64,000 bases of DNA from assembly GCF_055900595.2 (NCBI RefSeq), contig NZ_CM148325.1; one strand, written 5' to 3'. This document shows, piece by piece, positions 4,058 to 56,846 of the stretch. The position numbers were made by a program, and so were the translations under genes. The notes under the pieces were generated by a model. The model was not told the origin of the DNA and did not search any database. It saw nothing but the letters and a program-made list of their open reading frames with translations. Positions within the stretch are counted from its first letter, which is position 1, and each line of letters begins with the position of its first letter.

Positions 4058-4113
4058 AAACGGCGGCAGAGCAGTCACGGAGTAAAACTGATACCGCTAA
4101 ACGTCACCAGAAA
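4058..4113 (-). ncRNA. dicF: DicF small RNA (ftsZ-targeting sRNA of Qin-type prophages)
   Basis: Minus-strand sequence ttttctggtgacgtttagcggtatcagttttactccgtgactgctctgccgccg followed by a T-run; near-identical to DicF as I recall it. Confidence 0.8.
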
Positions 4114-9669: not shown

Positions 9670-9823
9670 TTTTATATTGGCGAGGTGACGTGAGTTAAGT
9701 AGAATTGCTGCGGGTGCTTGAGGCTATCTGCCTCAGGCATGAACACCAACGGCAGATAGAGAAAAGCCCCAGTTAACATTACGCGTCCTGCAAGACGCTT
9801 AACATTAATCTGAGGCCAATTTC

Positions 9824-10036
9824 ATGCTAGACACATGTAGGTTAGCCTCTTACGTGCCGGAAGGCAAGGAGAAGCAGGCTATGAAGCAGCAAAAGGCGAT
9901 GTTAATCGCCCTGATCGTCATCTGTTTAACCGTCATAGTGACGGCACTGGTAACGAGGAAAGACCTCTGCGAGGTACGAATCCGAACCGGCCAGACGGAG
10001 GTCGCTGTCTTCACAGCTTACGAACCTGAGGAGTAA
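9824..10036 (+). CDS. mok: mok-like reading frame overlapping hok
   Basis: 70-aa frame that starts upstream of and reads through hok, as in hok/sok loci. Confidence 0.5.
   Translation: MLDTCRLASYVPEGKEKQAMKQQKAMLIALIVICLTVIVTALVTRKDLCEVRIRTGQTEVAVFTAYEPEE
9881..10036 (+). CDS. hok: Hok/Gef-family type I toxin
   Basis: 51 aa MKQQKAMLIALIVICLTVIVTALVTRKDLCEVRIRTGQTEVAVFTAYEPEE, Hok family (HokD/RelF-like as I recall it). Confidence 0.85.
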   Translation: MKQQKAMLIALIVICLTVIVTALVTRKDLCEVRIRTGQTEVAVFTAYEPEE

Positions 10037-19053: not shown

Positions 19054-19416
19054 ATTAATATTAAATCGGATTATTTTTAGCGCTGAATGTGAAATTTAAA
19101 TAAAAAGGACTCTTCCATGAGTCAAAATCCTTGAAATCTTAAGGGTAAGATAAAAGGTCATTAGACAGAATGACACGTTTTATTAATAAATAAAGCTATT
19201 GTTTCATTCGTGTGTTTTTCTTTACAAAAGTAATCCTTGCTATGGTTGGTTAATCATGCGTTAATGGTGTTCTGGTTTGTTACAAAATTATCTGAAGCAG
19301 TCATTGTTATAATTTTATTATTTGTACCTCTTGAGATTTCCTTGTTGGTTTTTCTCTCTGATATTTTTTTTCGGACCATTCTGCCCAAGGGCTAACTTCT
19401 TCAAAAGGTAATAATG

Positions 19417-19629
19417 ATGTCTAACAAAATGACTGGTTTAGTGAAATGGTTTAACCCTGAAAAAGGTTTTGGTTTCATCACGCCGAAAGATGGTAGCAAA
19501 GATGTGTTTGTCCATTTCTCAGCTATTCAGAGCAACGATTTCAAAACGTTAACTGAGAATCAGGAAGTCGAATTTGGTATTGAGAACGGACCTAAAGGCC
19601 CCGCGGCTGTTCATGTTGTGGCACTTTGA
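19417..19629 (+). CDS. cspI: Cold shock protein (CspI-like)
   Basis: [38 protein letters not shown]... cold-shock domain. Confidence 0.9.
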
Positions 19630-19828
19630 GGTAGATAATATTACAAACCATATTCACTTTAGATGCCCGTGTTGCCATGGTTCTCAGTATAGAACATCAT
19701 CTTTTGATGTTTCTGACAGGAATCCTTTCGGGGCAAAATGTATCTTTTGTAAATCAATGATGATTACATTTGATAATATTTCACAATACTTAAATGTTAG
19801 CCGTCTATCGTTAGATTTAAGAAAGTGA
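19613..19828 (+). CDS. Possible small Cys4 zinc-ribbon protein
   Basis: [10 protein letters not shown]...CIFCKS motif; weak RBS; start overlaps the csp stop. Confidence 0.3.
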
Positions 19829-20770: not shown

Positions 20771-20977
20771 ATGCATAAAGATCAATACACTGATGCCCCC
20801 TCCCAGGAGCAGGTTCGTGTAAAAACTATGCTTAATAGCACCATTTCGATGGGTTACCCGGATGTTGTAATTGCATGTATAGAACATCAAGTGTCTCTGG
20901 AAGCATTCAGGGCAATTGAGGCCGCGTTAGTAAAGCACGATAAGAATACGAAGGATTATTCCCTGGTGGTTGACTGA
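20771..20977 (+). CDS. Hypothetical protein (68 aa)
   Basis: ORF upstream of the terminase region. Confidence 0.4.
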
Positions 20978-21299
20978 TCACCATAACTGCTAACCATTCT
21001 GACCATTTCACAAGTGACAGAGTCAATATCGTATTCTGTCACTGTCAGGCTAATACAGCAATGCAATTCAACTACAGCAATGCCTCGTATTTAGGTGAAT
21101 TTACAATATCGTCCAGTTCGGATGCCGGCTGCATTTCTGAAGATAAGGCATTTCGGTTCTCGTATTTTCCCCTCATGCTCGTCAGTCCTGCGCGTAGTAA
21201 GAAACAGGACACTCACACTAATTTGTGTGGGCATGCTGTGATGTCCTTCTGAATTATCCCCATGCCATTATGTAAAGCTCTGTTACAGATGCTCGTCAC

Positions 21300-21400
21300 G
21301 GTTGTCAGGCTGTCGGGTCCTCCCAGTGGGGGGCCCTGCCACGGGGCGGGAGCGTCGCGGAAAAAGGCTAGTTTTTGCATTTCCATGGCGGCGGCAGCAT
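21300..21400. other. Candidate cos / packaging-site region
   Basis: GC-rich island (cacggggcgggagcgtcgcgg, ggcggcggcagc) in an AT-rich intergenic region just upstream of the small terminase gene. Confidence 0.3.
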
Positions 21401-21527
21401 GTTTGGTAATTTATTGATAATTAAAAGTTATTTCCCTTTTCACCTGTACAATATTTTTTTCTTCCTGTCATTAGACCAGTTTGCAATTAATTGAAATATA
21501 TAAATAAACCTGATTTTCACCTGCCAG

Positions 21528-22067
21528 ATGGAGTTGCTTATGTCAAATGTGAGCGGGATCGGTGATGCTTATTACTGGAGTGTTTTTAAAATCGCCGAGG
21601 CCTTTGGGCTTCACCGGGACACAGTAAAAAAACGGCTCCTCGCGGCCAACACTCCTGTGGCTGCGACTGTCAGGGGGAACCCCGTTTACGCCCTGCAGCA
21701 TGTCGGGCCCGCCCTGTTTAGTGTGAAGCATGAGGCAGCAGACTCTGTTCATGATCCATCCCGTATGGAGCCGAAAGAGAGAAAGGACTGGTACCAGTCT
21801 GAAAATGAAAGGATCAAGCTGGAAAAGGAGCAGCGAAAACTCATCCCAGTTGATGAAGTAGTCATCGTCTATTCGTCCATGAGAAAGGCTGTCGTCCAGG
21901 TTCTGGAGACAATTCCGGATGTTCTTGAACGCGATTGCGCTCTGACTCCTCAGGCCGTCGGCGTTGTACAGCAGGCCATTGATGACCTGCGATACACTCT
22001 TCAGGAAAAATCCTACGAGGCTTGTGCTGCTGAATTAATTCCTGATGAGGAAGGAGAGAGTCTCTAG
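21528..22067 (+). CDS. Terminase small subunit (Nu1-like); start may be 21540
   Basis: Position and size; immediately upstream of the large terminase. Confidence 0.75.
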   Translation: MELLMSNVSGIGDAYYWSVFKIAEAFGLHRDTVKKRLLAANTPVAATVRGNPVYALQHVGPALFSVKHEAADSVHDPSRMEPKERKDWYQSENERIKLEKEQRKLIPVDEVVIVYSSMRKAVVQVLETIPDVLERDCALTPQAVGVVQQAIDDLRYTLQEKSYEACAAELIPDEEGESL

Positions 22068-22075
22068 GAGGAATA

Positions 22076-24175
22076 ATGGGTTTTTCATCAGCCCGAAATT
22101 TGGGAAGGGACATATCGGCAGGATTTTCCCCACCACGTCGCATGCCGATTTCGGAGGCTGTTAAAAAATTCATGCGTGTTCCCAAGGGGGCTGGTAACTC
22201 GGTGCCATGGGATCCTGAACTGACACCCTACATCATTGAGCCCATGAACTGCCTGGCATCGCGTGAATACGATGCGGTGATTTTTGTTGGTCCTGCGCGA
22301 ACAGGGAAGACCATTGGTCTGATCGATGGATGGATTGTCTATACCATCGTTTGCGATCCTTCGGACATGCTCGTTGTGCAGATGACCGAAGATAAGGCCC
22401 GCGAGCATTCTAAAAAGCGCCTCGACAGAACGTTCAGAAGCAGTGCGGCGGTAAAGAAAAGAATGAGTCCACGTCGTAACGACAATAATGTCCATGATAA
22501 GACGTTCAGGGATGGCTCGTTCCTTAAAATTGGTTGGCCCTCGGTCAACATTATGTCGTCGTCGGATTACCGGTTTGTCGCCTTAACCGATTACGACCGT
22601 TTTCCGGAGAATATCGACAGCGAGGGTGATGGTTTCTCCCTGGCCTCAAAACGTACCACCACATTTATGTCCGCCGGGATGACTCTGGTGGAGAGCTCGC
22701 CGGGACGTGACATCTGCGACAGCAAATGGCGACGTAAGTCGCCTCATGAAGCGCCACCGACGACTGGTATTCTTTCCCTTTACAATCGTGGTGACCGCCG
22801 CCGCTGGTACTGGCCATGTCCGCACTGCGGTGAATATTTTCAGCCAGCTATGGATGCCATGACCGGCTACCGTAATGAACCGGATCCCTTTAAAGCCAGT
22901 GAGGCGGCGTATCTACTTTGCCCGCACTGCAGCGGCATTATCACTGCGGAGAAAAAGCGTGAGCTCAATAGTGCAGGAGTCTGGTTGCGTGAAGGTCAGG
23001 TCATTGATCGTAACGGCAACGTTTCCGGTGAACCGCGCCGCTCCCGTATCGCCAGTTTCTGGATGGAAGGGCCAGCTGCTGCGTATCAGACCTGGGCGCA
23101 ACTGGTTTACAAATTACTGACTGCAGAACAGGAGTATGAAGCGACAGGAAGCGAAGAAACACTCAGGGCGGTTATCAACACCGACTGGGGATTGCCTTAT
23201 CTTCCTCGTGCCAGCATGGAGCAACGAAAAAGTGAACTGCTTGAGCAGCGGGCAGAGCCAGTTCCTTCCTGCAGTGTGCCGGATGGCGTTAATTTCCTTG
23301 TGGCGACAGTGGATGTGCAGGCGGGACGTCATCGCCGTTTTGTGGTTCAGGTAACTGGCTATGGCAGTCGTGGCGAACGCTGGATTATTGATCGTTACAA
23401 TATCACGCAGTCATTGCGCAGTGACTGCGACGGGGAGAGCCAGCGAATTGATCCGGCCAGCTATCCGGAAGACTGGGATGTCCTGCTGACGGATGTTTTT
23501 CATAAAAGCTGGCCGCTGGCCTCCGATCCTTCTCAACAAATGCGACTGATGGCAATGGCGGTGGACTCCGGCGGTGAAGACGGGGTCACTGATAATGCCT
23601 ATAAATTCTGGCGTCGTTGCCGTCGTGATGGCCTTGGTAAACGTATTTACCTGTTTAAGGGCGACAGCATCCGGCGCGCAAAACTGATCACCCGTACATT
23701 CCCTGATAACACCGGACGAACGGGCCGACGGGCGCAGGCCGCAGGTGATGTGCCGCTCTGGCTTCTTCAGACGGATGCACTGAAAGACCGGGTGAATAAC
23801 GCGTTATGGCGTGACTCGCCAGGTCCCGGCTATGTGCATTTCCCTGACTGGCTGGGGAGCTGGTTTTACGACGAACTGACGTATGAAGAGCGGAGCAGTG
23901 ACGGGAAATGGAGTAAGCCGGGTCGCGGTGCCAACGAAGCTTTTGACCTGATGGTGTATGCCGAGGCTCTGGTCATTCTGCATGGATACGAAAAGATCCG
24001 CTGGCCGGATGCACCGGAGTGGGCGAGCCGGGAAACCTGGCTGGAGTGTGTCCCGGACAGTACCGAACCGTCACCCTCACCGGAACCGGTATCCACGCCT
24101 GTTAAAAAACAAAAACGGAAGAAAACAGTAACTGACGATGTTAACCCCTGGCTGACTTCCGGAGGATGGTTATGA
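22076..24175 (+). CDS. Terminase large subunit (lambda gpA-like)
   Basis: 699 aa with Walker A (GPARTGKT) and C-terminal nuclease-type regions. Confidence 0.9.
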   Translation: MGFSSARNLGRDISAGFSPPRRMPISEAVKKFMRVPKGAGNSVPWDPELTPYIIEPMNCLASREYDAVIFVGPARTGKTIGLIDGWIVYTIVCDPSDMLVVQMTEDKAREHSKKRLDRTFRSSAAVKKRMSPRRNDNNVHDKTFRDGSFLKIGWPSVNIMSSSDYRFVALTDYDRFPENIDSEGDGFSLASKRTTTFMSAGMTLVESSPGRDICDSKWRRKSPHEAPPTTGILSLYNRGDRRRWYWPCPHCGEYFQPAMDAMTGYRNEPDPFKASEAAYLLCPHCSGIITAEKKRELNSAGVWLREGQVIDRNGNVSGEPRRSRIASFWMEGPAAAYQTWAQLVYKLLTAEQEYEATGSEETLRAVINTDWGLPYLPRASMEQRKSELLEQRAEPVPSCSVPDGVNFLVATVDVQAGRHRRFVVQVTGYGSRGERWIIDRYNITQSLRSDCDGESQRIDPASYPEDWDVLLTDVFHKSWPLASDPSQQMRLMAMAVDSGGEDGVTDNAYKFWRRCRRDGLGKRIYLFKGDSIRRAKLITRTFPDNTGRTGRRAQAAGDVPLWLLQTDALKDRVNNALWRDSPGPGYVHFPDWLGSWFYDELTYEERSSDGKWSKPGRGANEAFDLMVYAEALVILHGYEKIRWPDAPEWASRETWLECVPDSTEPSPSPEPVSTPVKKQKRKKTVTDDVNPWLTSGGWL

Positions 24176-36447: not shown

Positions 36448-36507
36448 TGAAAAACGTTTTATGTGAAACCGCCTCCGGGCGGTTTTGTCGTTTATGGAGC
36501 GTTAGGA

Positions 36508-40623: not shown

Positions 40624-41330
40624 TGCACAGAAAACCCCCAGCTAGGCTGGGGGTTCCGGAAAGCTTTCAGCTTTGAGCCAGTTATTAAAACCCCTTTTGA
40701 TTTGTTAAAACACCTTGCGGTCTGGCAACTGCAAGTGTCAAACAAGAAATCAAAAGGGGGTCCCAATGGGGGACGAAAAGAGCTTAGCGCACACCCGCTG
40801 GAACTGTAAATATCACATAGTTTTTGCGCCGAAATACCGAAGACTGGCGTTTTACGGAGAGAAGCGTAGGGCGATAGGCAGTATTTTGAGAAAGCTGTGT
40901 GAGTGGAAAAGCGTACGGATTCTGGAAGCAGAGTGCTGCGCAGATCATATCCATATGCTTGTGGAAATCCCACCCAAAATGAGCGTATCCGGCTTTATGG
41001 GATATCTGAAAGGGAAAAGCAGTCTGATGCTTTACGAGCAGTTTGGGGATTTGAAATTCAAATACAGAAACAGGGAGTTCTGGTGCCGAGGGTACTATGT
41101 CGATACGGTGGGTAAGAACACGGCGAAGATACAGGACTACATAAAGCACCAGCTTGAAGAGGATAAAATGGGGGAGCAGTTATCGATTCCATATCCGGGC
41201 AGCCCGTTTACGGGCCGTAAGTAACGAAGTTGAATGCAAATGTCAGATCGTATGCGCCTGTTAGGGCGCGGCTGGTAACAGAGCCTTACAGGCGCATTTG
41301 AAAAACCTCCGGCTATGCCGGAGGATATTT
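40621..41330 (+). mobile_element. IS200-family insertion sequence (about 710 bp, boundaries approximate)
   Basis: Left-end hairpin cccccagctaggctggggg, second stem-loop over the RBS, tnpA, right-end hairpin cctccggctatgccggagg. Confidence 0.8.
40766..41224 (+). CDS. tnpA: IS200 transposase TnpA (HUH Y1 transposase)
   Basis: MGDEKSLAHTRWNCKYHIVFAPKYRR...HIHMLVEIPPKMSVS matches IS200 TnpA. Confidence 0.9.
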   Translation: MGDEKSLAHTRWNCKYHIVFAPKYRRLAFYGEKRRAIGSILRKLCEWKSVRILEAECCADHIHMLVEIPPKMSVSGFMGYLKGKSSLMLYEQFGDLKFKYRNREFWCRGYYVDTVGKNTAKIQDYIKHQLEEDKMGEQLSIPYPGSPFTGRK

Positions 41331-56532: not shown

Positions 56533-56577
56533 GCTCCGTTTAACATTCATTGAGAAAACTGATGCTACTGTGTCAAC

Positions 56578-56677
56578 GATCCGTTATCAGTGCAGGAAAA
56601 TGCCTGTTAGCGTAAAAGCAAAACACAAATCTATCCATGCAAGCATTCACCGCCGGTTTACTGGCGGTTTTTTTTCG
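56578..56677 (+). ncRNA. mgrR: Candidate MgrR small RNA (boundaries approximate)
   Basis: Intergenic position between dgcZ and mgtS; ends at intrinsic terminator ccgccggtttactggcggtttttttt. Confidence 0.45.
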
Positions 56678-56750
56678 CCGTCATAAAAATCAGGCCCCTT
56701 GTACACAGTTGTAACAAGGGGCCGGTTAGGTGAGGGATTATCTCCGTTCA

Positions 56751-56846
56751 TTAGTCATCCCATTTGTGGCTGAAATACGCGGCCAGAAAACCAGAAAATA
56801 AAATTATTCCCAGTACGGCCATAAAAACATTCATATTACCCAGCAT
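56751..56846 (-). CDS. mgtS: Small membrane protein MgtS (YneM), 31 aa
   Basis: Minus-strand MLGNMNVFMAVLGIILFSGFLAAYFSHKWDD; not in the ORF track because of size. Confidence 0.8.
   Translation of the reverse strand: MLGNMNVFMAVLGIILFSGFLAAYFSHKWDD

Follow-up and report, generated by a model that had tools for sequence, protein, structure and literature searches.

The presence of a short GC-rich island just ahead of the small terminase gene of an E. coli prophage raises the question of whether this DNA is the site at which the phage genome is cut into cohesive ends and, if it is, whether the site still works. The initial annotation of the window, as we call the whole 64,000-nucleotide stretch of contig NZ_CM148325.1 that was analysed, had proposed a candidate cos site at 21300-21400 from its resemblance to the lambda cosN neighbourhood. 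This proposal is supported by the spacing of cosQ, the left half of the end, the CG pairs, the position relative to terS and terL and the conservation of the site in about 70 related loci. In all, with a probability of roughly 0.88, the segment from 21315 to approximately 21527 is the functional cos of an apparently intact lambdoid prophage of about 47 kb integrated at Qin.

The prophage and its terminase genes

The prophage is Tritos/cdtI-like and extends from about position 1 to about 46400 of the window, in the Qin locus of E. coli, where rspB and a truncated ydfJ flank it; the last 17 kb or so of the window are chromosome, from ydfJ to the mar operon and sad. Annotated as intact are the integrase, the excisionase, regulators, lysis genes, terminase, portal, a protease-capsid fusion and a full tail module. 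In RefSeq, the genes for the side tail fibre and for tail-fibre assembly are marked as truncated, and that for YdfR as partial. Retained genes with Qin names are dicB, ydfA-D, hokD, essQ, rrrQ, rzpQ, cspI, ynfN, gnsB, pinQ and ydfK. Rfam matches at gathering level were the DicF sRNA (4061-4112, - strand), the sok antitoxin RNA adjoining hokD (9712-9886, +), a cspA-type thermoregulator 5' UTR upstream of cspI (19259-19675, +), STnc490 in the prophage tail-fibre region (40633-40756, +) and STnc560 in the chromosomal flank (56544-56757, +). Strain CB209 (H12/H13; window 1-25000) is otherwise identical and is interrupted by an IS2, so that the match falls in two pieces with a span longer by about 1.3 kb.

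Chi sequences (GCTGGTGG) are unevenly distributed, with eight on the top strand and two on the bottom strand of 1-21343, which forms the right arm of the virion DNA; the 25-kb structural arm at 21344-46400 has none. Lambdoid phages of the Tritos class that lack anti-RecBCD are reported to have Chi clustered at the right end (PMC12315714); the asymmetry in the window matches this pattern and is consistent with a cos orientation that exposes the right end to RecBCD.

Downstream of the island (Table 1), terL encodes a 699-aa product and is followed by a lambda-family portal gene. In an alignment of 627 columns (E 7e-22), TerL and lambda gpA are 24% identical; TerL matches only the ATPase and nuclease families of gpA, with no assignment to the headful-type terminases (P22, T4, SPP1, Mu). 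The characterised members of the gpA family make 5' cohesive ends (terminase classification cited in PMC12315714 and PMC5764929).

The start of terS is not consistent among records: cdtI uses an upstream ATG (21528), for a product of 179 aa, and in RefSeq and Tritos the gene starts with the ATG at 21540 and encodes 175 aa. The latter start is preceded, 6 nt upstream, by a Shine-Dalgarno sequence GGAG (21530-21533) and is conserved in the A2 alignment. The sole Pfam match of TerS is DUF1441, outside the Nu1 family, and a BLASTP comparison with Nu1 yielded no significant similarity (E 4.6). In hhalign, a profile of 15 DUF1441 TerS aligned residues 12-58 with residues 2-49 of the Nu1 winged helix-turn-helix (wHTH), with E 1.5e-4 and a probability of 51%. 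We therefore consider TerS an analogue of Nu1 or a very remote homologue, and not a member of its family. The terminase, which had been described as lambda-like, is only distantly so, with a divergent gpA-family large subunit and a small subunit of the DUF1441 type. An AlphaFold (AF2) model of TerS with a mean pLDDT of 77.7 folds residues 12-60 into a beta-alpha-alpha-beta-beta-alpha domain, after which come long helices; its best Foldseek matches in the PDB are MerR-type wHTH domains, with probabilities up to 0.99 and weak E-values (>=0.14). Comparing the TerS sequence with the PDB gave no meaningful match. From the model, the N-terminal domain is predicted to be a MerR-like winged HTH.

Table 1. 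Location of the terminase genes and of the proposed cos elements in the window (slashes within sequences mark the predicted nicks)
Feature	Position	Strand	Basis
cosQ heptamer GGGTCCT	21315-21321	+	Identical to lambda cosQ; its end is separated from the predicted top-strand nick by 22 nt (23 nt in lambda)
cosN, 22 bp, CCACG/GGGCGGGAGCGT/CGCGG	21339-21360	.	Junction alignment with lambda, cdtI and Tritos
Predicted nicks	21343/21344; 21355/21356	top; bottom	
Predicted 12-nt 5' cohesive end GGGCGGGAGCGT	21344-21355	+	Record starts of Tritos and cdtI; yong2 boundary
I2-like conserved block CGCGGAAAAAGGCTAGTTTTTGCATTTC	21356-21383	+	Near-invariant columns in alignment A1; between cosN and cosB
Position equivalent to lambda R3 (putative)	21398-21404	-	Inferred; degenerate CATGTTT in the window, CAGGTGA or CATGTGA in relatives
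Putative IHF site TATCAATAAATTA, lambda I1 position	21407-21419	-	Perfect consensus match
Candidate TerS-binding site TTTTCACCTG, R2 position	21437-21446	+	TCACCTG-type core at 21440-21446
Conserved block TGTCATTAGACCAGTTT	21466-21482	+	Alignment A1; kept in all relatives with TerS >=90% identical, flanks vary
Candidate TerS-binding site TTTTCACCTG, R1 position	21514-21523	+	Core at 21517-21523; just upstream of the terS Shine-Dalgarno
Mosaic block: cosB, terS and first ~32 codons of terL	21384-22171	+	Replaced whole in mEp460/PhiR40-type phages
terS, DUF1441-type small terminase	21540-22067	+	PF07278 E 1.7e-44; phrog_141 'terminase small subunit' E 8e-65
terL, gpA-family large terminase, ATPase and endonuclease domains	22076-24175	+	PF05876 E 5e-81; PF20454 E 2.3e-86

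The cos core and the ends of related phages

The string that had drawn attention to the island, cacggggcgggagcgtcgcgg, lies at 21340-21360 on the + strand and, as had been described, within a local GC peak ahead of the small terminase gene: GC content is 0.66 at 21300-21399, versus 0.25-0.48 in the flanking 100-nt windows, and the string precedes terS by 184 nt (longest-ORF start, 21528) or 196 nt (RefSeq/Tritos start, 21540). It is identical to the lambda sequence TACGGGGCGGCGACCTCGCGG at 16 of 21 positions and is the sole site in the window with at least 15. Nevertheless, 15% of locally shuffled windows contained at least one match of 16/21, so the resemblance of this 21-mer is, by itself, weak evidence. 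A search of the window with a lambda 20-mer, allowing up to three mismatches, returned no match because the site carries four. We used instead the composite pattern GGGTCCT-N(18-26)-CGGGGCGG-N6-CG, with its CG-GGGCGG core, which has a single occurrence in the window and none in 100 shuffles that preserved dinucleotide content. A second GGGCGG-N6-CG, at 36477, was dismissed as it has no cosQ and none of the flanking elements. Searches of Rfam at the gathering threshold (20900-21600) found no family, and a scan for sigma-70-like promoters and intrinsic terminators (20900-21700) found none.

For a junction alignment we combined the window, the joined lambda ends (J02459) and two phage records found by megablast, Tritos and cdtI. 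The lambda sequence, ACGGGTCCT-23 nt-nick followed by TTACG/GGGCGGCGACCT/CGCGGG, and that of the window, TCGGGTCCT-22 nt-nick followed by CCACG/GGGCGGGAGCGT/CGCGGA, aligned in full register. The alignment with lambda that the initial annotation had proposed as a check thus gave an exact cosQ, the GGGCGG left half of the end and the CG flanks of both nicks. These CG pairs (CCACG/GGG on the left and CGT/CGCGG on the right) are conserved in relatives, and the heptamer is kept in all close ones; the dyad symmetry of cosN is 6/11 in the window versus 5/11 in lambda. The predicted end GGGCGGGAGCGT equals the lambda end GGGCGGCGACCT at eight of its 12 positions (1-6, 10 and 12), with mismatches at 7, 8, 9 and 11. 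The 7-bp cosQ is highly conserved among lambda-like phages (Feiss 2015, PMC4669245), whose cos group comprises lambda, 434, phi80, 21, N15, Monarch and Gifsy-1; natural variation in this group spares cosQ, the CG flanks and end positions 1-6 and affects positions 7-12, and changes in this right half have no measurable effect on cos cleavage (PMC4669245). All the mismatches between the window and lambda fall in this variable, tolerant half, and we therefore count them in favour of a functional cos. By analogy with lambda, we infer the nick positions as well as the polarity and length of the overhang, and we consider the exact nicks and the 12-nt overhang to be probable.

The boundaries of four independent phage records (Tritos, cdtI, LLS and yong2) coincide with the predicted nicks. 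The TerS of Tritos (OV696610, linear) and cdtI (AB285204) is 100% identical to that of the window, and both records start at the equivalent of 21344 and finish in ...CCACG; neither carries a cos feature annotation. The structural arm of the window is 97.7% identical to that of Tritos, and 97-98% to those of Tritos and cdtI, and the window and Tritos are identical in cosQ, cosN and at least 90 nt downstream, with two substitutions in the cosQ-cosN spacer. The record of the Hafnia phage yong2 ends in GGGTCCT-22 nt-...GAG/GGGGCAGCGACA and starts with CGCGGG; this boundary falls at the nick predicted for the bottom strand and is offset rightward by 12 nt from that of the Tritos, cdtI and LLS records. 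At the homologous place, the LLS record annotates a 12-nt "5' extended single-strand cohesive site", GGGCGGCGCGCT, whose ends, by the authors' own statement, are inferred with reference to Vahanian et al. 2017 and M. Feiss (PMC12315714). The Ayreon record was opened arbitrarily at terS and is thus uninformative about ends. Tritos, which is prophage 3 of E. coli LF82, forms virions and has been plaque-purified, in a paper that gives no description of virion ends (PMC9928086). The literature that we reached, short of the cdtI description and the 2017 cosN survey, contains no physical mapping of virion ends for the Tritos/cdtI-type lineage, and the origins of these records may have been set by analogy with lambda.

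The same architecture is widely conserved. The arrangement CCACG/12-mer/CGCGG occurs 129-195 nt before terS in Fels-1, PSTCR8lys, PhiR40_1, Eeyore and LLS, which have a DUF1441-type TerS, and about 70 IMG/VR viral loci with the same TerS type keep the cos architecture, with variation mostly at end positions 7-12. All the close relatives in IMG/VR contain GGGTCCT-22/23 nt-CG/12-mer/CGCGG at 195-197 nt before the ATG; their 12-mer is mostly GGGCGGGAGCGT, and the few that differ do so only at position 7 or 12. The architecture also persists in loci with 55-92% TerS identity, whose 12-mers differ (for example, AGGCGGCGGCCC, AGGCGGCGCGCG and GGGGCGAGGACA). The distance between CG pairs is altered in VT1-Sakai (locus L010, ~475-500; 11 nt, GGGCGGGCGGG) and in Gifsy-2 (locus L008, ~500-530; 14 nt, GGTGGCTTCGGGCT), so that a 12-nt stagger is not universal among sequences of the DUF1441-TerS family; these distances could mean that the overhang varies in length, that the sequences contain errors or that the cos sites of those prophages are defective.

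Candidate cosB elements and a possible packaging cassette

The interval proposed by the initial annotation, 21300-21400, holds cosQ, cosN and the I2-like block; it proved too short on its right side, where the probable cosB continues to about 21527. The I2-like block is common even to phages with a different TerS type, and megablast homology to mEp460_ev081 stops at about 21383. To the right of this block, we counted the offsets of candidate elements from the right nick across 12 representatives with TerS identities of 42-100%. The site in the R3 position is found at +42 in 7/12 representatives, and an IHF consensus match at +51 to +53 in eight of 12 diverged representatives. All groups have a TCACCTG-type core at +84/85; in the group with 55% TerS identity it is inverted. 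TCACCTG lies at +160/161 in 10 of the 12 and at +165 in L083, and was not detected in L073. Some groups only contain an extra site, at +111. The conserved block TGTCATTAGACCAGTTT has TGTCACCTCAA as its aligned counterpart in the 55% group. The R cores of lambda are found at +53, +155 and, in inverted orientation, +114; I1 separates those at +53 and +114, and Nu1 starts at +191.

A general search for direct repeats in cosB found none, and a custom scan recovered the exact 10-mer pair TTTTCACCTG, of modest significance as such a repeat arises in 2.6% of shuffles, together with a second pair. Both pairs are spaced 77 bp (GyAATTwATTGA at 21406-21419 and 21483-21496; TTTTCACCTG at 21437-21446 and 21514-21523), which suggests an ancient tandem duplication of a unit formed by an AT-rich bend site and an R site. 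Binding of IHF and of TerS to these elements would follow by analogy with lambda. As deduced from the sequence patterns, our specific assignment of R sites is tentative, with odds slightly short of even.

Comparison with PhiR40_1 indicated that this region could be exchanged as a unit. Homology to this phage is lost within 21383-21433 and comes back at 22172, and the flanking DNA, including cosQ and cosN, is shared; the differing block therefore consists of cosB, terS and some 32 codons of terL. Work of the Feiss laboratory with lambda/21 hybrids reportedly showed that the same unit carries packaging-initiation specificity, through the TerS-cosB contacts and the interface between the TerS C-terminus and the TerL N-terminus. 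The mosaic block may be a self-contained cassette for initiation specificity, with TCACCTG-type R sites distinct from those of lambda, 21 and N15, and recombinationally exchanged between phages of the Tritos/cdtI and mEp460/PhiR40 types that share cosQ-cosN-I2; we rate the chances of this proposal as even. If true, co-resident prophages of the two types would discriminate at initiation and could terminate on each other's cos, and the boundary spanning cosB, terS and the N-terminus of TerL would be a natural example of modular exchange of packaging specificity.

Alternative readings, packaging model and known systems

The prophage could be defective, and the site a genuine cos by descent that is no longer used and is cut only by the terminase of a related helper phage. 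This would agree with the truncated side tail-fibre and tail-fibre assembly genes and the partial YdfR gene flagged by RefSeq, with the two spacer substitutions relative to Tritos and with the condition of K-12, which we take to carry a decayed Qin prophage remnant at the same locus. Laboratory strains of lambda, though, lack functional side tail fibres. Besides, the genes from the integrase to the full tail module are annotated as intact, the structural arm is nearly identical to that of Tritos, which forms plaques (PMC9928086), and cosQ, cosN and the following 90 nt have not diverged from it. We consider this reading improbable because the prophage is structurally complete.

It is less probable still, in our view, that the GC island is a minus-strand gene for a small protein (ORF 21213-21386, 57 aa) whose likeness to cos is incidental. 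The ORF matches phrog_35283, of unknown function, with E 3e-19, and in the HannyBb record the region is covered by hypothetical proteins. However, its frame over cosN is not conserved (the window reads RDAPAPW, whereas PhiR40_1, L064 and Eeyore read RRSRPV), frame-shifting indels occur, neither the start nor the C-terminus is conserved, and there is no Pfam match; stop-free stretches are, besides, expected in GC-rich DNA. Since relatives in which the DNA elements persist do not preserve the frame, we rejected this ORF as a gene; phrog_35283 is probably a spurious protein family made of the translated cos DNA of close relatives. The + strand ORFs at 21262-21417 and 21061-21252 have no convincing family. 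Equally hard to sustain is that the island is a chance match or unrelated conserved DNA, in a phage that packages by headful (pac) or has its cos elsewhere. The frequency with which shuffled windows match or exceed the 16/21 of the 21-mer would allow it, but the composite of cosQ and cosN was absent from all 100 shuffles, the other GGGCGG-N6-CG lacks cosQ, and the four independent record boundaries fall at the predicted nicks. Headful packaging is unlikely because TerL belongs to the gpA family and cosQ and cosN are complete.

With the island as a functional cos, packaging could proceed as follows. During late replication, the DUF1441 TerS would bind cosB through its N-terminal wHTH, at the candidate TCACCTG sites, with the degenerate inverted site at 21398-21404 as a further candidate contact, and IHF would bend the DNA at its putative site and so aid the assembly of TerS. 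Bound to cosB, TerS would position the gpA-family TerL on cosN, and TerL would then nick both strands at the predicted positions to generate the 12-nt 5' ends. Packaging would run rightward, with the terS end first, and would end at the next cos, where cosQ would be needed for the terminal cut.

This cos site is very probably an ordinary member of a well-studied class, of a kind whose family the Feiss laboratory has reportedly surveyed, and the finding is unsurprising. Indeed, the cdtI (2007) and Tritos records, by the base at which they begin, already imply the identical site; what is mildly new is limited to the cosB anatomy and the cassette limits proposed here for the lineage with a DUF1441 terminase, and the current understanding of cos packaging is unchanged. 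The position of cos fixes the virion map, with terS at the left end and the lysis/moron region at the right end, and predicts which DNA of the flanks, bacterial or prophage, might be packaged in error. It also extends the rule of Feiss (cosQ, positions 1-6 and CG flanks fixed; 7-12 free) to the DUF1441-terminase lineage, which is common in prophages of E. coli and Salmonella, including virulence phages of the Stx, Cdt and Gifsy types.

Compared with lambda, the site in the window shares the cosQ heptamer, end positions 1-6, 10 and 12, the CG pairs at both nicks and a TerL of the gpA family, and the distance from cos to terS (184-196 nt) is similar to that from the lambda left end to Nu1 (190 nt). 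The proposed cosB layout is parallel, with a putative IHF site between a proximal and a distal candidate repeat and a third one just before terS (R3-I1-R2-R1 in lambda). In contrast, the repeat sequences are unrelated (core TCACCTG in the window, CGTTTCC in lambda), the spacer between cosQ and the nick is 1 nt shorter (22 versus 23 nt), end positions 7, 8, 9 and 11 differ, TerS is a DUF1441 protein without significant similarity to Nu1 and TerL is only 24% identical to gpA. Gifsy-2, a close relative of Gifsy-1, and Fels-1 share with the window a DUF1441 TerS (35-40% identity), a gpA-type TerL and a head module with a protease-capsid fusion, and Fels-1 has the same kind of site, CCACG/GGGCGGCAGCGG/CGCGG; however, in Fels-1 and in the Gifsy-2 sequence analysed AGGTACTCC replaces GGGTCCT, and the CG pairs of Gifsy-2 are separated by 14 nt. 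The end of Gifsy-1 differs from that of lambda at positions 8, 9 and 11 (PMC4669245), a subset of the differences in the window, which adds position 7.

Tritos and cdtI differ from this prophage in their integration site and early regions; cdtI, for instance, integrates in prfC (PMC5764929), and the prophage described here at Qin. Finally, LLS, mEp213, mEp460 and PhiR40_1 share the cosQ-cosN-I2 architecture, with an identical 12-mer in PhiR40_1, whereas their TerS is only 41-42% identical and their cosB is unrelated from about 21384, which suggests that these phages apply a different packaging-initiation specificity to a shared cleavage and termination site.
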